63,051 nucleotides of DNA. Source: a virus (Duplodnaviria > Caudoviricetes). A program made the translations under genes and the position numbers. Numbering within the stretch: the first letter of the stretch is position 1; each line of letters begins with the position of its first letter. Positions 23,725 through 63,051 of this stretch are shown in pieces. The notes beneath the pieces are model-generated. The model saw only the letters and a list, made by a program, of their open reading frames with translations. It made no database searches and was not told where the DNA came from. The DNA is taken from positions 1-63,051 of the IMG/VR virus record IMGVR_UViG_3300036845_000466. One strand, written 5' to 3'.

Positions 23725-23986
23725 CCGGCTTGCAGCCGGTGAGCGGGTCAAGGGAGGGGTCGGCTTCTTCAGCCGGCCCCTGCTGCGTTGCGGTCATCTG
23801 CCGGCGGCGCTCGGGGTCGAGCGTCCACAGGCCGCGCGGGTCGAGCAGGTCCCTCATGTGGGAGACCGCGACCATCGCGCCGGGACCGGCCGTGGCCCAG
23901 TAGGTGTCGAGCACCGACTGCATCCGCCGGACCGTCTCTGCGTCCTGCTCGGCCTGTTCTACGTTCTTCTGGGCTACGAACTTCAT
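23705..23986 (-). CDS. hypothetical protein
   Basis: MKFVAQKNV...; ATGA overlap with the endolysin stop. Confidence 0.65.
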   Translation of the reverse strand: MKFVAQKNVEQAEQDAETVRRMQSVLDTYWATAGPGAMVAVSHMRDLLDPRGLWTLDPERRRQMTATQQGPAEEADPSLDPLTGCKPVTPPGA

Positions 23987-24912
23987 GGCGTGGTGAATTC
24001 CTCCCAGTCGGACCAGACGTAGTTCGCGACCCCGGCCGCGACCCGCCAGCGGTAGCGCGTGCCCGGGGCGACTGCCAGGGTCGTGGTGACGGCGCCCTGG
24101 TGCGCGTCGTCGTACATGACCCAGCCGAACCCGTTCTTGTACCACTGGATCTGGAAGTGGTAGCTGGTCTGCCCGGCGACCGGGTGCCACGAGCAGGTCA
24201 CCTGGTAGCCGGTCGGCCGGACCGCCTGGTAGGTGCCGCCAGGCGCCGGGGTCGGCTGGTTCGCCGGCGGGGGCGCCGGCTTGGTGCTGTACGCCAGGGC
24301 GGCCAGCTGGTCGATCGTGCCGTGGAAGACCGAGCAGTCGGCGGTCCCGACACCCGGCACGCTGAAATTGCTCGTGAACTGCCACAGGACGTGCTGGCCG
24401 GACGGCTCTACCGAGGTGTAGTCGGCCAGCCACTGGACCGGCAGCGCGCCCTGCTGCTCGCCGAACCAGAGCCCGGTGTACGTCCAGAGGTACTTGCCCG
24501 GGTAGCCGAGCGCGAGCATCCGGTTGTACCAGGCCGAGAGCATCGGCTTGGTGCCCTGCTCGAAGTCGGCGATCAGCACCTCGCCTTCCTCGAGCGGGCC
24601 CACCAGGTCGTGCAGCGCGTTGGCCTGGGACGTGCCGTCTTCCCCCGCCACCAGGAACTGGTAAATCCCCAGGAAGCGCACGCCGCCGTCGTGCAGCGCC
24701 TTGCGCCGCGCGCCGTTGTACCAGGCGCCGTCGTCGTGCGCGTTCCCGAAGGCCGCCCGCACGCAGATCGCCTTGGACCAGGACAGGTACGTCTTGTCGG
24801 CGACGTTCGGCTGAAACTCCGACACGTCAGCCAGGTACGTCAGCTCGCCCGCTTCCGATACAACGCGGGGCAGGTCCGCCGGCGTGGTTCCGCCGGCCCG
24901 GAAAGCTACCAC
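23983..24912 (-). CDS. endolysin, GH25 muramidase with FN3-like C-terminal domain
   Basis: ADVSEFQ, GIYQF, ADFEQ (DxE), WLADY, LWQFTS...ADCS; Pro-rich linker; PGTRYRWRVAA...SDW. Confidence 0.88.
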   Translation of the reverse strand: MVAFRAGGTTPADLPRVVSEAGELTYLADVSEFQPNVADKTYLSWSKAICVRAAFGNAHDDGAWYNGARRKALHDGGVRFLGIYQFLVAGEDGTSQANALHDLVGPLEEGEVLIADFEQGTKPMLSAWYNRMLALGYPGKYLWTYTGLWFGEQQGALPVQWLADYTSVEPSGQHVLWQFTSNFSVPGVGTADCSVFHGTIDQLAALAYSTKPAPPPANQPTPAPGGTYQAVRPTGYQVTCSWHPVAGQTSYHFQIQWYKNGFGWVMYDDAHQGAVTTTLAVAPGTRYRWRVAAGVANYVWSDWEEFTTP

Positions 24913-25352
24913 TGAACCGGGTTCGCGGTGATCGAGCCGGAAGCAAACTGCACGGTGTCGCCGTTGACCACGCCGGTGATGTTCGACGTGACGGTGCCCT
25001 GCATGTACCGCAGCGGGGTGGCTGCGGTGTCCCAGATTTCGATACCGACGACCGTCGACCAGGTGCCGGTGGCCGACCAGCTAACCGAGTTGCTGTTGCT
25101 GACCGCCGCCGGAGACGTAGCGCTGTATGTGGTGAACGTCGGGCTGGCGCCCATCGTCGAACCGAGCGCGGTGTAGCCGCTGGCCGACAACTCGGTGCCG
25201 TTGGCGGCGCTGACGTTGCCGTTGCCCGAGCCCATCGCGGTCATCAGCCGCAGGTGGAACGGGGTAGTGGCGGCAGGCGGGGTGACCCCGGAGTTGGCGT
25301 ACCAGTAGTTGAAAACCGCCGCCTGGCGCCCGGTGTCAGTCATGTACGGCAT
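24906..25352 (-). CDS. minor tail protein
   Basis: TELSASGY...TVVGIEIWDTA...NGDTVQFASGSI pattern typical of tail-tip accessory proteins. Confidence 0.7.
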   Translation of the reverse strand: MPYMTDTGRQAAVFNYWYANSGVTPPAATTPFHLRLMTAMGSGNGNVSAANGTELSASGYTALGSTMGASPTFTTYSATSPAAVSNSNSVSWSATGTWSTVVGIEIWDTAATPLRYMQGTVTSNITGVVNGDTVQFASGSITANPVQW

Positions 25353-53529: not shown

Positions 53530-54215
53530 GCAGCTCTCCGGTATGTAGCGGCCTCCGGCAGGCCGAAGCTAGGAACCAGCCGGGCCCCGGGGAACGGAGA
53601 GCCCGGCTGGCACCGGCAGTGCGTGTGCACTGCGCCTGGGTAGCCGATCAGTGGCATGTGATCAGCGTAGAAGTTCCGGCCGTCTGCGGCCAGGCACTCC
53701 CTGCTTGTGTGCGCGTCGCGTTTTGCGTGCCAGCCCAGCAGCCGGCCGTACGTCATCGCCGCGCTGTCTGTCTGCGCGCCTGCCTGGCTGCGGTTCCAGA
53801 TGGCGACCAGGTGCTGCGCGTAGTACCGGCGCTCACGCTGTACCGACGCCGCCAGCTGACTGCTAATTGAGCGCCCCTGGCTGCGTGCGGCGGTCAGGTC
53901 GGCCCCGATCCGCCGGGCAGCGTTGATCGCGAACTGGGCGCGGCGGGTCAGGTTCAGCCGCTCGGTGGCCAGGGTGGCCGGGCCGTAGGCGCCGGTCTGA
54001 CCTGGCGGGAAGCTGATCACGATGTCGAGCGCGGCGAGCATGGCCTGCCTGGGCACGCCCACTGCCCGGACGGACTGGTAGACCCCGGCCACGGCCACGG
54101 CGGCCGACGTGGCGGTCAGCAGCGCCAGGCTGACCGCCGTGATCAGCGCAGCGTCACTCGGCGGCGGAGGCGGGGTCTGTGGCGGGGGCGGGGACTGCGG
54201 CTGGGTTGTCGGCAT
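53526..54215 (-). CDS. MuF/SPP1 gp7-like head morphogenesis protein
   Basis: W...D..TSREC...DG...PGAVHTHCRC. Confidence 0.82.
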   Translation of the reverse strand: MPTTQPQSPPPPQTPPPPPSDAALITAVSLALLTATSAAVAVAGVYQSVRAVGVPRQAMLAALDIVISFPPGQTGAYGPATLATERLNLTRRAQFAINAARRIGADLTAARSQGRSISSQLAASVQRERRYYAQHLVAIWNRSQAGAQTDSAAMTYGRLLGWHAKRDAHTSRECLAADGRNFYADHMPLIGYPGAVHTHCRCQPGSPFPGARLVPSFGLPEAATYRRAA

Positions 54216-54522
54216 ACGTAGTCACCCCCGCACGCTGAGTGCGGAAGATCATGACGCACCGCCAGACCAGGATGAAGAACACCAGGGCCAGGAACACCAC
54301 GTCGACCCAGGCCAGGGCGATCGAGTGCACCCCGAAGTCGTAGCGCAGAACAGATGCGAACGTGGCGCCGGCGATGCACAGGTCCAGCGAGATCATGTTC
54401 TGGCCCCACCAGTCGCGCCACCAGGGCCAGATGAAACCGATCAGCACCGGGAAGAGGACGGCAGCCCAGAATGTCGCGTTGACCGTCCACTCGATAGCGT
54501 CAATCAGCGGCTGGTTTGCCAC
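54154..54522 (-). CDS. putative holin (three TM)
   Basis: PWWRDWWGQNMI motif flanked by hydrophobic helices. Confidence 0.6.
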   Translation of the reverse strand: MANQPLIDAIEWTVNATFWAAVLFPVLIGFIWPWWRDWWGQNMISLDLCIAGATFASVLRYDFGVHSIALAWVDVVFLALVFFILVWRCVMIFRTQRAGVTTYADNPAAVPAPATDPASAAE

Positions 54523-54730
54523 TCTGCGTTCTCCGTCCTGCGATCAGCTGGTTGATCAGGGGCTGGATGTGATTGACCTTGTGCATGTCGCGCAACGGTA
54601 CCTCGACCTCCCGCTGCGTGACCTCCAGGCGCTGCTCGGCAGCCAGGCGCGCACTGCGGGCTTCTTCGAGCCGCTCTTCCTGCGTCACCGTCACTGACTG
54701 CTCCTGATTCCGCTGCCTGAAAAACCTCAT
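54500..54730 (-). CDS. small coiled-coil protein of the membrane trio
   Basis: EEARSARLAAEQRL...NHIQPLI. Confidence 0.65.
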   Translation of the reverse strand: MRFFRQRNQEQSVTVTQEERLEEARSARLAAEQRLEVTQREVEVPLRDMHKVNHIQPLINQLIAGRRTQSGKPAAD

Positions 54731-56897: not shown

Positions 56898-57073
56898 GCG
56901 GTCCGCCTCTCGTGCGCTGGCACCAGTCCGGTCCACCGTCCATTGCGCTTGACAGGGCGCTTGACCCCGAGAGACACCGGACCACGGTGGCAAACCGCGC
57001 AGATCGGTGCTCCCGTCCCCGATCCCCACATGGTGTGGGAACCGGGGCACTTCCGTACGTCGTCCCTGCTCAT
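56894..57073 (-). CDS. small Cys/His protein
   Basis: MSRDDVRKCPGS...CAVC...VPAH; ATGA coupling. Confidence 0.6.
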   Translation of the reverse strand: MSRDDVRKCPGSHTMWGSGTGAPICAVCHRGPVSLGVKRPVKRNGRWTGLVPAHERRTA

Positions 57074-57573
57074 GCCGGGCTCCCTGCTGTAGCAACGACT
57101 TCCACGTTGCTCTCGGCGGTCCAGTGGACGGTGCCGTCCGCGTCCTTGAGCCCGACCCGGCGCCCGTAGCGCCCTTCGCCTGCCCAGATGACCGTGCCCT
57201 GCGTGCCGACCGGGACCTTGCGCCCCTTGACTACCCGGACTTCCCTGCCCTTGGCGACCTTCGCTGCCTCGGCCGCCATGTAGGCGTCGTACCGTTCGGC
57301 TGCCAGGCGGGCCTTCCAGGCGTCGTACGCGGCCTGCACCTCGGGCGTGGCGTCCGCCGTCGCGCTGTTGTTGTAGGTCCAGCCCCGGGTGCTGGCGTAG
57401 CCGACCTCGCGGGGCTCGCCGGCCTCGGCGTCCCAGACCATCGCGTAGAAATCGCTGTCGTCGTGCCAGTTGTGCTCGCCGGTGAACAGGACCAGGCCCT
57501 CGTAGGTGACCGTGTATTCGTCCGCCTGCGGGCGCCACTCGTCCGGTCCGCCGTTCCAGGTCTTGACTGCCAT
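57070..57573 (-). CDS. hypothetical protein with KOW/SH3-like C-terminus
   Basis: Own promoter and AGGGAGAAGAT; KGREVRVVKGRKVPVGTQGTV. Confidence 0.75.
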   Translation of the reverse strand: MAVKTWNGGPDEWRPQADEYTVTYEGLVLFTGEHNWHDDSDFYAMVWDAEAGEPREVGYASTRGWTYNNSATADATPEVQAAYDAWKARLAAERYDAYMAAEAAKVAKGREVRVVKGRKVPVGTQGTVIWAGEGRYGRRVGLKDADGTVHWTAESNVEVVATAGSPA

Positions 57574-57601
57574 CTGATCTTCTCCCTGAGTAGTTCCTTG
57601 T

Positions 57602-57636
57602 ACTTCTATCAACACTCCAGGTCAGTGGTTCATTCC
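57602..57636 (-). promoter_or_regulatory. SigR/SigH-like promoter
   Basis: Reverse complement reads GGAAT-N18-GTTGATAGAAGT. Confidence 0.75.
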
Positions 57637-59286
57637 CTACCGCCAGTCGACGTGGTTGGCGCGCGGTCCCGGGGCGGTCGCCTCGGTCTGCGGGGCAAAG
57701 TCGTCCAGGTCCCAGCCGCCGCCGGCGTGGTCGAGCAGCCCGCCGTGCGCGCCCTTCAGCCGCTTGCGTGAAATACCGCTGGCCGGCCGGTCGACTCCTG
57801 CCTGGCTGTCGATCTCGTCCTTGGCCGCCCACTTGAACGCCTTGGCCTTAGTCGGCACGTCCTCGAACGTGGCGTTCAGGAACGGCGTGCACGCCCATAC
57901 GAGGGAGTCGAGCCGGTCAGGCGACCGCTCGTCCTTGGCCCCGGTGAACGTAGCCATCTGGTCTTCCAGCTCGGCCAGCTTCACGATGTCGCGGTGCCAC
58001 TTGGTCGCCCCGGTCTCCGGGTCGACGATCTCGTAGGTCTGGCCGTCGTAGCAGTGCCTGACCACGCCGCGCTCGTACAGCGCGCTGACCGGTTCGGCCC
58101 GGGTGCGCTTGGACTTCGACGCGTCGACCACGGTGACGGCCGGCCGGTTGCCGTCCGGTATCTGCCCGGAGTCGTCGAGCTGCTTCATCACCTGGGCGAA
58201 CACCGTGGTCAGCCAGCGCCCGCCGTGGTTCTTCTCCACCACGATCGTGGCGTGCCACTTCACCGCCTCGAGGATGACCCGGCGCGCGAACGCGGCGGGC
58301 GGCTCCTGGCCGCCCCAGTTCTTGGCCACGTAGAGCGAGCCGGTGAACATGCCGGCGATGGTGTACGCCTGCTCGTCGCTCGACTCGGTGCCGTCCGATG
58401 GGTCGACGCCGATGATCGCGCGGTGCAGGTAGTCCGGGCCGCCTTCCTGGCCGACCATCGGCACCTGGATGCCGTCGAGCTGGTCGCGCGTCCACAGCGC
58501 GTTGGCCACGTCCTCGAGCAGCTCGCCCTCCAGCTCCTGCCGCTCGAGCCGGGTGCCCTTGGCCGAGCCGACCACGGTCCGGTAGAACGCGCTGGACAGG
58601 TTGGCCACGTTGTCGACGGTCCGCAGCTTGCGGGTGATCACGCCGCCCTCGCCCGGGTCGTTGCGGATCAGCGAGCGCACCAGCGCGCGGGCCGGCCGCG
58701 ACGCCTTGGGCGTGCCGGTGGCGATGATGACCGACTCGCCCATGCGGACCGCGTACTTCAGCGACTCGTTCCAGGTGGTGTCCCACTTGTCCCACAGGCC
58801 CACCTCGTCGCACCAGGCGGCGCGCAGGTTGCGCCCCTGGATGCGCAGGCCGCCCTCGGCCGCGCTGTCGGCGTAGATCACGATACCGTTGTGCAGGATG
58901 ACCTGGCCGTAGGTCCGCCAGGCCGACCTGACCGTCTTGCTCGTGTGGCTCTTGATCTCTTTCATCGACGTGCCGAGCGCCCGCAGGATGCCGCTTTCGC
59001 CCTCCACGCACTTGGTCCAGGCGTCGGCGTAAGTCGGGGCGACGATCGCGTACTCGCCCTCGCCGCCGGTGTCGGCCATCACCAGGTCGGCCAGGCCCTG
59101 CGCGCCGGCCCGGGTCTTGCCCGACCCGCGCCCGCCCTGGAGGTAGAAGACGCGCCAGGTGCCGTCGCGCTTCGGCAGCAGCTGCTCAGGCCGGGCAGTC
59201 ATCCGCCAGGCCAGGCGCGGGTCGTCGGGGGTCTTCCCGATTCTCGTCTCGAAAAGATCCAGCGCGGCGAGGTCGCGGTTGGTCAC
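57637..59286 (-). CDS. terminase large subunit
   Basis: GGRGSGKT, AWCDE, TGTP, IGVDPS, VVEKNHGG, SPDRLDS. Confidence 0.95.
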   Translation of the reverse strand: MTNRDLAALDLFETRIGKTPDDPRLAWRMTARPEQLLPKRDGTWRVFYLQGGRGSGKTRAGAQGLADLVMADTGGEGEYAIVAPTYADAWTKCVEGESGILRALGTSMKEIKSHTSKTVRSAWRTYGQVILHNGIVIYADSAAEGGLRIQGRNLRAAWCDEVGLWDKWDTTWNESLKYAVRMGESVIIATGTPKASRPARALVRSLIRNDPGEGGVITRKLRTVDNVANLSSAFYRTVVGSAKGTRLERQELEGELLEDVANALWTRDQLDGIQVPMVGQEGGPDYLHRAIIGVDPSDGTESSDEQAYTIAGMFTGSLYVAKNWGGQEPPAAFARRVILEAVKWHATIVVEKNHGGRWLTTVFAQVMKQLDDSGQIPDGNRPAVTVVDASKSKRTRAEPVSALYERGVVRHCYDGQTYEIVDPETGATKWHRDIVKLAELEDQMATFTGAKDERSPDRLDSLVWACTPFLNATFEDVPTKAKAFKWAAKDEIDSQAGVDRPASGISRKRLKGAHGGLLDHAGGGWDLDDFAPQTEATAPGPRANHVDWR

Positions 59287-60026
59287 CCGGCTAGCTCGCC
59301 CTGCACAACCTTGAGGTGCCGGCGGAACGCCTGGCGGGCCCCGTTGATGCCGTCGAGCCCGACGCCCGATTCCTCGAGCGCGGCATCCAGCGCCCGCTCG
59401 AGCATGTTGGCGGTCTGCTGGTGCACCCCGGCCAGGCGTTCCTCGATCTTCAGTTTGGAGATCTGGATCAGGATGTGCGCGAACCGCTCGAGAGCGCGCT
59501 CGTAGAGCAGCACCTCCATGCGCAGCTGCTCGCCGGTCTTGACCGTGGTGTAGCGGACCTTGGACATCTCGATCAGCTTGGTCGTGACCTCGCGCATGAT
59601 CTCTTTGAACTCGCCCATCTCGGCCGCCAGGTCGAGCAGCTCGTTCAGCGGGTCACCGATCGGCGAGGGGTGCAGCAGCCGCTGGCCGTTCTCGGCCATG
59701 ATCTCCGCCAGCCGGTCGGTGATCTTGCCTTCCACGGTGCGCCCGGCGGCCTGGTTGCGCGCCACGCTGCCCGCGTTGGCGCCGTGGTTCTTGCACTGCG
59801 GCGGGACGGTGTTGTAGACCGCGTACTGGCGGCAGGCGTCCGGCTCACCGAAGTCGTGCCGGCAGCGCCGGCGGCCGGTGACTTCCTCGGCTTCCTCCAG
59901 GTACTCGTCGGGCACGTGCAGCAGGCAGTACTCGAGCCCCTCGATCTCGCAGTTGCCGCACCTGTGCCCGGTCTTCGCGGTAAACAGGCACTTCGCGGTC
60001 CCCTCGCCCGGCTGACCCGGCATCAC
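59283..60026 (-). CDS. putative terminase small subunit
   Basis: Immediately upstream of the large subunit; CKNHGA motif; helical C-terminus. Confidence 0.65.
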   Translation of the reverse strand: MMPGQPGEGTAKCLFTAKTGHRCGNCEIEGLEYCLLHVPDEYLEEAEEVTGRRRCRHDFGEPDACRQYAVYNTVPPQCKNHGANAGSVARNQAAGRTVEGKITDRLAEIMAENGQRLLHPSPIGDPLNELLDLAAEMGEFKEIMREVTTKLIEMSKVRYTTVKTGEQLRMEVLLYERALERFAHILIQISKLKIEERLAGVHQQTANMLERALDAALEESGVGLDGINGARQAFRRHLKVVQGELAG

Positions 60027-60307
60027 GGCTCCCTGCTGTCGATGTGGTCGGCTAGCAAGCCGGTCGTGACCAGCGAGAATACCCCGGTCCAGAGCGGTAC
60101 GAACAAGATCATCGCGATCGCCGCCACCACGTAGGCCCAGCCGTGCAGCGCGAGGTCGCAGCCGTCCGTCGTCGTCAGGCCGACCGTGCAGTAGACGCCG
60201 TGCCAGGCGGGGACGTGCTCGGCCGCCGCCATCAGGTAGCCGGTAACCACGTCGGCGAACACGACGGCGCCGAGCAGCCAGCCGGCCCGGTGATGGTGGC
60301 GGTTCAC
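60023..60307 (-). CDS. two-TM potassium-channel-like protein (Ion_trans_2-like)
   Basis: TM1, AE, pore-helix-like GVYCTVGLTTTDGCD, TM2 VVAAIAMILFVPLWTGVFSLVT; GTGA and ATGA overlaps. Confidence 0.65.
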   Translation of the reverse strand: MNRHHHRAGWLLGAVVFADVVTGYLMAAAEHVPAWHGVYCTVGLTTTDGCDLALHGWAYVVAAIAMILFVPLWTGVFSLVTTGLLADHIDSREP

Positions 60308-60672
60308 ATCCGCTGCCCGCCCTGCGAGCGAAGCTCGGCCAGGATCTCGCGCAGCAAGTCGTCGGTGGTCTCCTGCGCCCGGCCCTCGTCTTCGTGCAGC
60401 GTGCACCACGGGGTGCCCTTGACCTTGTGCTTGCCGAGCCGCCAGCAGCCCTCGTGGTGGCAGTTGTGCACGTGGTAGAGCGCGGTGACCGCCGACAGCA
60501 GGGTGAACGCGGTCAGCGCCGGGATGAACCCGCTCAGCAGCTGGTAGGTCCACGGCGTCCCGGCCGGCACCGGCCAGGCGCCCATCGAGAAGCGCAGCCC
60601 GTACGGGTGGTACAGGCCGAGCCACGTCAGGGTGACCGCCCAGAGTGCCGCCAGGGCCGCGAACAGCTTCAC
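60304..60672 (-). CDS. membrane protein with Cys/His motif
   Basis: Two hydrophobic segments, then CHHEGCWRLG...CTLH. Confidence 0.68.
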   Translation of the reverse strand: MKLFAALAALWAVTLTWLGLYHPYGLRFSMGAWPVPAGTPWTYQLLSGFIPALTAFTLLSAVTALYHVHNCHHEGCWRLGKHKVKGTPWCTLHEDEGRAQETTDDLLREILAELRSQGGQRM

Positions 60673-60697
60673 GTGCCCATTATGGGGCGGGCCCGGC

Positions 60698-61165
60698 CTA
60701 AACGGACAGCGGCGCGGCGAGCATCGCGAGGAAGTGGTCGGTCCGGGCGATCATCTCGGCCACGGTCAGGTCGGCGTCCTCGGCTGCGGACAGCTGCGCC
60801 CGGGGCATCGGCGCGGTCGGCAGCGGGCCGGAAACGCGGCTGCTGGGCACGTAGCCAGGGGCCGGGCGGAACACCGGCCGGGGCCGGGCAACCAGCGCCG
60901 GCTGCTGGACGGTCTTGTCCAGGTAGGCCGCCAGGCCCGTCTCCGGCCAGCCGAACTGGGCCCCGTCGTAGGACGGCAGCGTCCTGCCCTGGATCTCCTG
61001 CTCCCAGACCTCGCGCTCGGCCTGCGTCGGCTTGCCCCAGACCTCGCCCTCGGCGTCGTCGGTCAGCCGCTTGTCGAGCGCCTTGTAGACGATGAAGATG
61101 ATGATCAGTGCGCCCTGGAAGACGATAAACGCGAAGAGGGCTTTGCCGGTTACGTCGAATGTCAT
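60698..61165 (-). CDS. single-TM protein
   Basis: N-terminal TM; AGGGAGAAAGATC upstream. Confidence 0.68.
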   Translation of the reverse strand: MTFDVTGKALFAFIVFQGALIIIFIVYKALDKRLTDDAEGEVWGKPTQAEREVWEQEIQGRTLPSYDGAQFGWPETGLAAYLDKTVQQPALVARPRPVFRPAPGYVPSSRVSGPLPTAPMPRAQLSAAEDADLTVAEMIARTDHFLAMLAAPLSV

Positions 61166-61191
61166 GATCTTTCTCCCTGTTGTGGTTTGGG

Positions 61192-61218
61192 GGCCCCGGC
61201 AGGGGACCTGCCGGGGCC
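61192..61218 (-). terminator. perfect stem-loop
   Basis: GGCCCCGGCAGG-GGA-CCTGCCGGGGCC in an intergenic gap. Confidence 0.65.
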
Positions 61219-61230
61219 GGCTTGCTCAGC

Positions 61231-61602
61231 TCAGGCGGTCGGGGCGGGCGGGGTCGCGACGGGCGCGGTCTGCGTCTGGGACGCGGCGGTCACGTCGGAC
61301 ACGGACTGGACGAGGCCCTGCTGCGTCGAGGCGATCGACGCGACGGCGGAGTCGAGCGCCGAGGTGTCGACGTTCTGCGGGAGCGCGGCGACAGCGGTCC
61401 TGATCGCGGCCACGTCGGTCTCGAGCTGTGCGGACTGCGCCTGTACGGCGCTGACCAGGTTCTGCACGGCGGTGGTGTCCGCGTTGATCGCGGCCTGCTG
61501 CTGGCTGATGTCAGACATGATGATCTCCAGTTTCCTGTTGAGACGCTGCTCCATCGCGAGCAGCTGTTCCCTGGTACTGCGGTCGTGCTCGAAAAGCTCC
61601 AT
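61231..61602 (-). CDS. coiled-coil hypothetical protein
   Basis: MELFEHD...; TAATG coupling to the HNH-like gene. Confidence 0.65.
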   Translation of the reverse strand: MELFEHDRSTREQLLAMEQRLNRKLEIIMSDISQQQAAINADTTAVQNLVSAVQAQSAQLETDVAAIRTAVAALPQNVDTSALDSAVASIASTQQGLVQSVSDVTAASQTQTAPVATPPAPTA

Positions 61603-61946
61603 TACGTCACCTTGGCAAATCGCCCGCGCGCATCGTGGAGCGGATTCCTGACGACTCCACGCTGACGTGCACCGATCTGATCGTATGACCTGTGGCACAG
61701 CCGGCACAGGGCAATGTAATCCGCCCAGGGGTCCTCGCCGTCTGTGCCGTGGACCGTAGCCCAGTCGCGGGCTTGCGTACGTCTTCCCAGCTCGAGGCAC
61801 TTGACGCACTCGTGGTCACTGGCCTTGCCGCGCCGCCGAACCACGCGCTGATGGCGGGTACGGACCCCAGCCGACTCGCCCTTGAACTGCGCACGATCGG
61901 CTAGCGTCTTGTGTCGCTTGCAAGTACACTGACTTGAACACTTCAT
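61602..61946 (-). CDS. HNH-like endonuclease
   Basis: HQRV...GKAS..CVKC...W...YIALCRLCHRSYD. Confidence 0.65.
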   Translation of the reverse strand: MKCSSQCTCKRHKTLADRAQFKGESAGVRTRHQRVVRRRGKASDHECVKCLELGRRTQARDWATVHGTDGEDPWADYIALCRLCHRSYDQIGARQRGVVRNPLHDARGRFAKVT

Positions 61947-61959
61947 CTAAATAACGCCT

Positions 61960-62730
61960 CTAACAGCCGTCATAAGGCGTCCAGTCCGAGTATCCGTCAT
62001 CGGCCACGGTCTGGGCGAACACCGCGTTCTGCTCGGCGACCGAGGCGTTGCCGAAGCTGGCGGCCGACCCGCCGTGGGCGACCCAGGTCGACTCGCTGAA
62101 CTGGTAGAGCCCCCAGTGCCCGCTGGCGTTCCAGATGTTCGGATTGCCGCCCGACTCCGCGCGGATGATGCAGCTCTGCATGCCGCCCGCGCCGGAGTAA
62201 CTTCCAACGGCCGGGGCACTCTGGTTGGAATGACCGGTCGTCACTCCAACGGAGCTTTGAACCGCTGCCTCCACTGGCTGCTGCTGCGCAGGCGCGGCCG
62301 GAGCCGGAGCCGGCGGGGCCGGGTAGGTGTAGCCGGGGTCAGAGCAGCTGACCTTGAGGCGCTGGCCGGGCTCGATCATGTCGGGCCCGCCGGTGAGGGT
62401 CTTGCTGTTCGCCTTGTACAGGCCGGACCAGTCGGCGGCGGTGCCGCAGGCGGTCTTGGACAGGGCCGACAGCGTGTCTCCTGAGTGCACCGTCACTGAG
62501 CCAGGGACGGTAGCCAGGTGGGCGGAGACGAACGCTACGGCGCCGCCAGGGGCGGTCTGCGCTGCGGGGGCGGCCGGGCGGTCCGGCGGCGAGAAGTGGA
62601 ACGGGAGCAGCGAGACGACGGCGGCTGTCAGGGCGAAGACACTGACGGGGCGTCCCGATGCGAAGTTGTTACTGGTGAGGCGGAAAATTAGTCCTGAAAT
62701 CCGTTGTTTCAGGAGACGCTGAGCGCCCAT
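61960..62730 (-). CDS. resuscitation-promoting factor-like lytic transglycosylase with LysM
   Basis: LysM VHSGDTLSAL...IEPGQRL; C-terminal CIIRAESGGN...GLYQFSESTW...ASVAEQ...W...C; hydrophobic N-terminal segment; start uncertain. Confidence 0.88.
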   Translation of the reverse strand: MGAQRLLKQRISGLIFRLTSNNFASGRPVSVFALTAAVVSLLPFHFSPPDRPAAPAAQTAPGGAVAFVSAHLATVPGSVTVHSGDTLSALSKTACGTAADWSGLYKANSKTLTGGPDMIEPGQRLKVSCSDPGYTYPAPPAPAPAAPAQQQPVEAAVQSSVGVTTGHSNQSAPAVGSYSGAGGMQSCIIRAESGGNPNIWNASGHWGLYQFSESTWVAHGGSAASFGNASVAEQNAVFAQTVADDGYSDWTPYDGC

Positions 62731-62856
62731 TTAGCCCTATCCTTTGCTCGGACGGTTTCTGCCGCAGGACGGGGCACTTTGCCAGGAGATATCCCGCTGA
62801 CGGCGCATCGAACCATGACGATAGCAGGCGGTATTCGTTTTCGGCCTGTATCGGCA

Positions 62857-62907
62857 CAAAAAGAGACTCCCCGCAGCTAGCAACTGGCTACAGGGAGTCT
62901 CTTTTCG
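62857..62907. terminator. intrinsic terminator, probably bidirectional
   Basis: AAAAGAGACTCCC...GGGAGTCTCTTTT stem with T runs on both strands. Confidence 0.8.
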
Positions 62908-62909
62908 TT

Positions 62910-63050
62910 CTACTTGGTGGTCACCACGTTGATCCAGCCGACCCGGGCGCCGGGGATCGGCGTCCCGTTGGCGTAGGCCGGGGTGAACGAGATGTCGTAG
63001 GTGTGCCCGGCTGCCAGGCCCCACCAGAAGCCGATGCCCTGGTGCGGAAC
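62910..63050 (-). CDS. partial CDS, FN3-like C-terminal end
   Basis: Read by eye: ...GLAAGHTYDISFTPAYANGTPIPGARVGWINVVTTK-stop. Confidence 0.5.
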   Translation of the reverse strand, partial: VPHQGIGFWWGLAAGHTYDISFTPAYANGTPIPGARVGWINVVTTK

Positions 63051-63051
63051 C

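Follow-up and report, generated by a model that had tools for sequence, protein, structure and literature searches.

A gene of 94 codons in a virus record of 63,051 bases (linear, 68% GC, estimated to be 69% complete; hereafter the window) encodes a membrane protein that is supported as a pore-only member of the K+-channel pore superfamily. Its selectivity filter, T-T-D-G-C-D, is a shortened form of the canonical K+ filter, and its gene lies directly behind that of a second membrane protein carrying a zinc knuckle. The two genes constitute a conserved module within which the type of the filter varies. We consider it rather probable that the 94-codon gene encodes a pore-only cation-channel subunit descended from canonical K+ channels. 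By analogy with engineered and natural short-filter channels, the product would most likely be a non-selective cation pore made late in infection.

The initial annotation, made from the sequence alone, had placed a 94-residue protein at positions 60023-60307, hidden in a longer spurious open reading frame (ORF), and had regarded it as phage-encoded. All three points were borne out. The family scans found phage replication, capsid, portal, terminase and lysin genes in the window. The gene lies on the minus strand, and its translation of 94 residues begins with VNRHHHRAGW, passes through TTTDGCDL and ends with ADHIDSREP. The GC fractions at codon positions 1, 2 and 3 over the 94 codons were 0.67, 0.47 and 0.95, respectively, which is the coding signature of a 68% GC genome. 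The listed ORF of 200 amino acids (60023..60625, minus strand) contains the gene as its 3' part. The additional 5' part (106 codons) showed values of 0.98, 0.65 and 0.49, and is out of frame because a real upstream gene (60304..60672, minus strand, 122 codons; 0.66, 0.49 and 0.98) overlaps there in a different frame. The GTG start codon at 60307 overlaps the stop codon of this upstream gene (ATGTGA). Homologues of the protein have the N-terminus M/V-N-x-H-H-[KR]-R-A in common, with conservation from residue 2 onward; in 19 close homologues N2, H4, R7 and A8 do not vary or hardly vary. Since the codon-position GC, the stop/start overlap and the N-termini of the homologues agree, the gene and its coordinates are confirmed. 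A start further upstream than 60307 was rejected, as the GC fraction at the third codon position (GC3) puts that region out of frame, and a chance ORF or a wrong frame was excluded by the GC3 values together with the homologues.

The assignment to the channel superfamily was obtained through the relatives of the protein. The 19 close homologues were found with E-values from 3.6e-57 to 2.6e-17, and 87 distant cluster representatives were found at E ≤ 1e-3 (among 1.84 billion). The family alignment and profile used below comprise 104 sequences with 26-68% identity to the query. The canonical relative P0020 (51% identity over 98% of the length, E 2.6e-17) has the filter TTVGYGD and scored 40.3 bits on PF07885 (Ion_trans_2), for which the cutoff is 22.5. 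PF07885 was matched at E ≤ 0.01 by 33 of the 104 family members. When the 104-sequence profile was compared with the PDB, 139 distinct sequences of solved channels were matched at E ≤ 0.01, the best being TOK1 (2.3e-12), the NaK variant C-DI (7pa0; 8.9e-9) and KcsA (1e-7). No longer or fused forms turned up, which is weak evidence.

The predicted structure leads to the same assignment. The AlphaFold2 model calculated with the 104-row alignment has a mean predicted local distance difference test score (pLDDT) of 96.4 and a predicted template-modelling score (pTM) of 0.83. DSSP assigned helices to residues 3-30, 34-45 and 58-92 of the model, and the loop of residues 46-57 bears the motif TTDGCD. 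This agrees with the order of first transmembrane helix (TM1), pore helix, filter and second transmembrane helix (TM2) that had been read by eye. In the Foldseek search against the PDB, the top 50 entries were all NaK, KcsA or engineered variants thereof, with template-modelling (TM) scores of 0.67-0.77 and a probability of 1.00, and the scores span essentially the whole length of the protein. The top fold match was 7OOR, and one entry of the top 50 is a NaK mutant that mimics the pore of the Drosophila cyclic-nucleotide-gated channel. The resemblance to KcsA, also noticed by eye before, took the form of a superposition on KcsA and NaK with TM-scores of 0.70-0.77; for KcsA the root-mean-square deviation was 2.6-3.1 Å over about 100 columns. 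Unlike KcsA, the protein has a filter shorter by one residue, a Cys at the position of an aromatic-cuff residue and no C-terminal bundle domain. The identity to NaK-type structures in the fold alignments was 14-16%. A four-copy homotetramer prediction with the 104-row alignment, carried out without control runs, gave a score of 0.31 against a mark of 0.42, which weighs on neither side of the question of assembly. The protein shows the two-transmembrane (2TM), pore-loop architecture and the profile homology of the superfamily, and its own sequence falls below the Pfam gathering threshold. Because the PF07885 matches of the relatives, the profile, the model and the Foldseek result agree, its membership as a pore-only protein is supported, and the potassium-channel-like identity proposed in the initial annotation holds in this sense.

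The filter was then defined by alignment with the canonical relatives, which occupy the same genomic slot as the short-filter gene. T46, T47, D48, G49, C50 and D51 correspond, with a gap between C50 and D51, to T-T-V-G-Y-G-D. One residue has been lost (G-Y-G to G-C), Val has been replaced by Asp and Tyr by Cys. The description of a TVGYGD filter shortened by one residue with an acidic substitution is consequently correct column for column, and the signature T-x-G-[YF]-G-D of canonical K+ channels is not found in the 94-residue protein. Over the 104 rows of the family, no columns other than T47 and G49 are invariant; D51 is found in 86 rows. Other conserved residues are found in the N-terminal region (H4 in 56 rows, H5 in 61 and A8 in 81 of the 104), in the pore helix (G37 in 98, Y39 in 88 and C40 in 73) and in TM2 (P71 in 103, T81 in 94 and H88 in 71). 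As judged from these sequences, the filter core is the most constrained part of the family, which argues that the loop would still act in a manner dependent on its exact shape.

The family contains filters of several kinds. Canonical G-Y-G is found in 11 of the 104 rows, G-C in 55, G-G in 22 and other short forms (G-N-S, G-A-D, G-S-S and so on) in the remaining 16. Among the single motifs TTDGCDL is the most frequent (12 rows). Natural TTVGCDI, TTVGCDV and TTVGCDL filters are also present, and the TTVGCD type occurs in L050 as well (L-numbers denote contigs found with the channel or the partner searches). D51 accompanies C50 in 51 of the 56 rows that carry C50. C40 of the pore helix is found in every one of these 56 rows, and without C50 in 17 others; position 40 is F, W or Y in all 11 canonical rows. 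Through the canonical relatives C40 aligns with the position of the second aromatic-cuff residue, which we take to be W68 in KcsA numbering. The association of C40 with C50 could not be told apart from shared ancestry, as the phylogenetic control had one usable pair on supported branches and no power. An analysis of mutual information with D48 pointed to position 44 and gave no clear partner residue.

The gene directly upstream of the channel gene, which the initial annotation did not mention, encodes a 2TM protein with a zinc knuckle of the form C-x4-C-x13-C-x2-H. C71, C76, C90 and H93 are invariant in 71 homologues. The protein also has a conserved extracytoplasmic motif, G-T-P-W-T-Y-Q-L-x-S-G, and a C-terminal helix, the knuckle being cytoplasmic, and its model has a pLDDT of 92. 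No Pfam domain was found among the 71 homologues, a fold search gave generic helical matches only (best Z 3.7), and a search of the Atlas gave clusters of 'hypothetical protein' only.

The pairing of the two genes was seen from both sides. The search with the channel gave 11 viral contigs, 10 of which have sequence upstream of the channel gene; a partner-type gene lies directly upstream in all 10, and in five of these loci the same 4-nucleotide overlap is present. The search with the partner profile gave 37 viral contigs, and in 32 of them a channel-family ORF follows directly downstream on the same strand. The five loci without such an ORF are those with the five weakest partner matches. Since the pairing holds from both the channel and the partner searches, the two genes form a conserved module, and the partner genes, an uncharacterised family, nearly always have a mini-channel gene behind them. 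The filters of the 32 module loci are canonical G-Y-G in 17 and short in 15. The derived filter is found in about half of the members of the lineage. The zinc protein probably serves the channel as an auxiliary or regulatory subunit.

The lineage has so far been seen only in metagenomic viral contigs and in one contig of a metagenome-assembled genome. A tblastn search with the 94-residue protein, P0020 and the partner against 50,697 GenBank phage records gave no match, and at the level of BLAST the lineage is therefore separate from the known phage K+ channels. No relative was found in a scan of representative bacterial and archaeal genomes with the single protein; the partner profile matched one contig in these genomes, the 6.6-kb metagenome-assembled contig mentioned above.

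The closest counterpart of the short filter is found in an engineered channel. The best PDB sequence matches of the close-homologue profile were 7PA0 and 7OOR (E 0.016 and 0.02), and the HMMER alignment places t-t-t-d-G-c-d-l on T-L-T-T-V-G-C-D-I of NaK C-DI. This variant is NaK, a non-selective bacterial channel, into which a section of the AMPA-receptor filter (MQQGCDI) had been transplanted (bioRxiv 10.1101/2022.08.08.502946). The same source describes conduction of monovalent cations in recordings and simulations, with TTV providing the main ion sites and CDI forming a wide vestibule (bioRxiv 10.1101/2022.08.08.502946). The 94-residue protein resembles NaK of Bacillus cereus and its C-DI mutant in its 2TM scaffold of about 95 residues, its shortened filter and the G-C-D that follows the T-x-G core. 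It differs in that C-DI is man-made, in that Asp stands here for its Val, and in that the pore-helix Cys, C40, is not present in NaK. The T-x-G core with an acidic G-C-D is, at the level of sequence, the short filter of the NaK and glutamate-receptor type. The protein is not an ionotropic glutamate receptor, as it has 94 residues and two transmembrane helices, with neither a ligand-binding domain nor a third transmembrane helix.

On this basis the following mechanism may be proposed. Four subunits would assemble around a central pore. The inner filter (the T46/T47 hydroxyl and carbonyls, and G49) would bind partly dehydrated cations, and D48, C50 and D51 would form a short, wide and acidic outer mouth. 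The short filter would retain only the inner carbonyl sites, that is, those of the T-x-G part, and K+ and Na+ (possibly Ca2+) would pass with little selectivity for K+. This low selectivity is proposed because of the analogy with NaK and with the NaK C-DI/AMPA-receptor filter. In the channel protein, His and acidic side chains gather where TM1 and TM2 end on the cytoplasmic side. The pH sensor of KcsA sits at the cytoplasmic ends of its transmembrane helices. The His-rich N-terminus (H4-H6) and the A-D-H-x-D segment after TM2 could likewise meet at the cytoplasmic end of the bundle as a sensor of pH or metal. The zinc-knuckle partner would be the neighbour of the channel in the membrane and may serve in its gating or assembly. 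Expression late in infection is indicated by the translationally coupled string that the channel gene shares with the partner and terminase genes. Through the open pore K+ would leave the cell and Na+ or H+-coupled charge would enter, and the membrane potential and the K+ gradient of the host would run down. The benefit to the phage might be the triggering of lysis, the exclusion of other phages, or the control of turgor and ions for assembly; each of these, taken singly, appears improbable or very improbable.

Several facts weigh against the interpretation as a conducting, late-made, non-selective pore. The protein alone had no match to PF07885 in the Pfam scan, even at E ≤ 10; the HMMER comparison suggested in the initial annotation was thus negative for the protein itself and positive only for its relatives. 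Nothing relevant was found with the single sequence in PHROGs, NCBIfam or the rest of Pfam, and phmmer against the PDB matched no solved channel. Because the single sequence matches no family and no solved channel, the link to the channels is visible solely through homologues and profiles. The Foldseek E-values, about 5e-3, were weak, as they usually are when a protein is short and helical. The G-[YF]-G signature, common to every functionally proven K+ channel, is missing, and no characterised channel is known to us in which Asp takes the place of the filter Val. The conduction of the family members is something that we infer by analogy, and the analogy with NaK C-DI covers TVGCD, not TDGCD, so that it is weaker for T-D-G-C-D. 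In the tree of the 104 sequences only 13 of 101 inner branches are well supported. The best tree gives 15 changes of the filter, and the well-supported branches force only one per class; since the tree is poorly resolved, the number of filter changes is not countable. Finally, we infer late expression only from gene position and the codon overlaps, and scans for promoters, terminators and Rfam families over 57000-63051 gave nothing above background. The sequencing runs listed comprise no RNA run and three DNA runs from soil metagenomes, one of which may be the source.

A first alternative is that the short-filter protein does not conduct. Its role would then lie either in scaffolding or regulating the CCCH-zinc partner at the membrane, or in joining a host K+ channel as a poison subunit. 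The loss of the G-Y-G signature and the position of the single sequence below every family threshold are in line with this, as is the pairing with another membrane protein that could hold the real activity. The occurrence of C40 in all rows with C50 could also be the sign not of a pore but of a site that binds metal or has a structural role. However, the T-x-G core holds the only invariant columns of the family, which would be unexpected for a relic pore. Canonical K+ filters are moreover found in more than half of the module loci, and the ancestral activity of the module is therefore that of a channel. The engineered filter of NaK C-DI, which is nearly identical in sequence, is described as conducting (bioRxiv 10.1101/2022.08.08.502946). 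We regard the non-conducting alternative as unlikely, though it is the main rival.

The other alternatives concern the use of the pore and depend on the genomic setting (Table 1). The stop/start overlaps run through the partner, the channel, a 247-residue protein and the large terminase subunit (TerL), and the channel gene therefore heads a packaging/structural operon. The 247-residue protein showed no family match in Pfam, PHROGs or NCBIfam; its syntenic homologues in L001, L002, L004, L005, L007 and L009 are 52-63% identical. In these same six contigs, as in the window, the order is partner, channel, 247-residue protein, TerL and portal. In L014 a terminase-family gene is found about 0.8 kb downstream of the module. 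In L010, L024, L037 and L038 the module is flanked by the major capsid gene on one side and by glycosyltransferase or sugar-epimerase genes on the other, and a glycosyltransferase gene is also nearby in L006, L016, L034, L035, L039 and L042. The setting that the loci have in common is thus late or structural; it is neither a lysis cassette nor an immunity region. TerL of the window is at most 32% identical, among the matches listed, to the terminases of the 50,697 GenBank phage genomes (tblastn). The phage belongs to a lineage with no cultured close relative in that collection. Only the GC content, the TerL matches and the Atlas taxa suggest a host among the Actinomycetota.

Table 1. Positions of the channel gene, its structural elements and the neighboring genes (positions in the window unless a contig is named).
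Feature	Position	Strand	Basis or remark
94-residue pore-only channel-family gene	60023..60307	minus	GTG start 60307-60305, TGA stop 60025-60023
Outer helix TM1, residues 3-30	60218..60301	minus	DSSP of model; preceded by basic/His N-terminus N-x-H-H-[KR]-R-A
Pore helix, residues 34-45 (W35 H36 G37 V38 Y39 C40 ...)	60173..60208	minus	DSSP of model
Shortened filter, T46 T47 D48 G49 C50 D51	60155..60172	minus	Sequence and alignments
Inner helix TM2, residues 58-92; V-P-L-W, F-S, T81, cytoplasmic A-D-H-x-D end	60032..60136	minus	DSSP of model
Partner gene, 122-residue 2TM protein with zinc knuckle	60304..60672	minus	ORF, GC3 0.98, homologues; stop overlaps channel start by 4 nucleotides
247-residue protein, Cys/His-rich N-terminal half, small-terminase position	59283..60026	minus	Start overlaps channel stop
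Large terminase subunit	57637..59286	minus	phrog_38 1.3e-21; start overlaps stop of 247-residue gene
Transglycosylase-like protein, PF06737	61960-62730	minus	Hydrophobic N-terminal segment read from translation
VIT1-like gene	L010 6377-6829
VIT1-like gene	L011 4935-5390
VIT1-like gene	L021 3363-3995
VIT1-like gene	L023 3543-3995
VIT1-like gene	L025 3540-3995

The surroundings of the module contained some further genes of interest. Small membrane proteins of the VIT1 family (PF01988, iron/manganese transporter-like) adjoin it in five contigs and represent a second ion-transport gene there. Anti-Thoeris genes lie just downstream in two contigs, namely Tad3 in L003 (6596-6952; PF25185, 3e-31) and a Tad2-like gene in L007 (7035-7292; PF11195, 8e-25). 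An RF-1 domain protein (peptidyl-tRNA hydrolase/ArfB-like, PF00472, 3.3e-16) is encoded next to the module in L026 (4701-5099, minus strand). In L016 (816-2900) a gene for an NAD-dependent epimerase/GDP-mannose dehydratase is split by an intein with a LAGLIDADG domain. In the window, a Cys/His-rich protein of 114 residues at 61602-61946 (minus strand) has by eye the look of an HNH endonuclease; both this gene and that of the PF06737 protein, whose family we take to be transglycosylases of the Rpf type, are located upstream of the terminase and of the genes for the membrane proteins. Two weak matches were noted elsewhere in the window. One, to Phage_holin_2 (54157-54543, minus strand), had an E-value of 5.5e-5, did not reach the cutoff and is flanked by the portal and MuF-like genes; the other, to a GH25 lysin (23986-25080, minus strand; E 8.4e-5), scored 23.4 bits where 27 are required and is about 35 kb away from the channel gene.

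It might be supposed that the pore is a pinholin-like trigger of lysis, which would collapse the proton-motive force late in infection and thereby activate wall hydrolases, secreted or membrane-tethered, encoded 1-2 kb upstream. Candidates for such hydrolases are encoded there: in addition to the PF06737 gene of the window, transglycosylase-domain proteins are found 1-2 kb upstream of the module in L001, L002, L005, L007 and L009, with a LysM domain in all of these except L007, and NlpC/P60 peptidases are also present in L001, L002 and L009. The gene string is late by position, and in L008 the module is directly followed by a hydrophobic ORF of 73 residues and a GH25 lysin. L008 is, however, the sole locus with an adjoining lysin. 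In the window the lysin match is far from the channel gene, the weak holin-family match is at yet another place, and the lysis genes of this phage appear to be dispersed. Most other loci have the module beside capsid/glycosyltransferase or VIT1-like genes, not lysis genes, and neither the channel protein nor the partner matches a holin family in Pfam or PHROGs. These facts make a lysis trigger distinctly improbable.

A two-gene exclusion or defence module of the type of RexAB or CarolAnn gp43-gp44 would be another possible interpretation. The channel would stay closed until the partner senses a competing phage, and the cell would then be killed or arrested. A membrane pore with a partner that carries a cytoplasmic domain has the corresponding two-gene architecture, and the CarolAnn model proposes an ion channel activated by its partner (PMC6426606). 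The module is found at different genome positions, as a mobile module would be, and the anti-defence genes directly downstream in L003 and L007 mark a region of accessory genes. Against this, the module of the window is located inside the structural/packaging operon with overlapping codons, away from an immunity region. No integrase or repressor was found among the 40 ORFs of the window that were scanned, in a record that is 69% complete, and no sequence relation to Rex or gp43 was seen, PADLOC not having been run. We therefore hold this interpretation to be very doubtful. The roles in superinfection and in lysis timing that had been suggested in the initial annotation are without direct support; the lysin does not adjoin the channel gene, and the association with lysis genes in related phages is inconsistent. 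That the short filter with its acidic residues is still K+-selective is likewise very improbable: it is interchangeable with the canonical TVGYGD versions of sister phages in the same module, but known channels need four contiguous sites for K+ selectivity, one filter residue is deleted here, and NaK and NaK C-DI, with fewer sites, are described as non-selective (bioRxiv 10.1101/2022.08.08.502946).

A non-selective cation pore thus stands as our preferred interpretation, and it can be compared with the viral channels already described. K+ channel genes have been catalogued in the Mycobacterium phages Myrna and Phabba, in Streptomyces phage BillNye and in vibriophages, among others (Greiner et al. 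2018, PMC6163359). All of these have G(Y/F)GD, channel-like viral proteins without the signature having been excluded from the survey, and their role in infection is given as not known (PMC6163359). Like the present protein they are small, pore-only 2TM proteins of tailed phages including actinophages (theirs 117-228 residues); unlike it they keep G(Y/F)GD, and no partner gene is described for them (PMC6163359). The Kcv channels of chloroviruses and other algal viruses are of the same size class, with a chlorovirus channel of 94 residues (PMC6163359), and are likewise virus-encoded and reduced to the pore module. They differ in their canonical filter, in being proven K+ channels and in having eukaryotic hosts, and no sequence relation to them was detectable. 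A search of a viral structure library gave weak best matches (E 0.08-2), mostly giant-virus channels together with two tailed-phage proteins with a K+-channel domain.

Phage-encoded small proteins of the K+-channel type are therefore already known in kind, and the present protein is not a new kind of protein. What is new is the derived short filter together with a 2TM CCCH-zinc partner of no known family, in one phage module. Keyword searches of the open-access literature, in which absence is not proof, found no phage or prokaryotic T-x-G-C-D channel and no description of the partner family; the supplements of PMC6163359, with their list of channel-like phage proteins, may include relatives. 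A more far-reaching reading can be tentatively offered. The filters TTVGYGD, TTVGCD[ILV] and TTDGCD would represent a natural series in one orthologous family, in which the pair of C40 in the pore helix and C50 in the filter, possibly as a disulfide or a metal site, replaces the aromatic cuff of the short-filter forms. With the obligatory CCCH-zinc 2TM partner, the module would be an unknown two-subunit, redox- or metal-gated non-selective cation channel that switches off the membrane potential of the host at a fixed time late in infection. The shortening from G-Y-G to G-C-D would then be the same step that separates the pores of glutamate receptors from those of K+ channels. Taken as a whole, this reading is unlikely.

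Pore-only viral channels are the simplest systems for the study of selection and gating in K+ channels. The family of 94-130 residues described here would offer a natural step from the four-site K+ filter to the short filter of the glutamate-receptor/NaK type in one orthologous slot, with both states extant. Because both filter states occupy one slot, the loss of selectivity and its compensation by the Cys pair and the Asp are testable by swaps of a few residues. The finding also adds a conserved, unstudied two-gene membrane module to the late operon of soil actinophage-like viruses, and extends phage ion channels beyond the canonical K+ type so far catalogued. The zinc-knuckle partner, which has no family or fold match, may be a new kind of auxiliary channel subunit.

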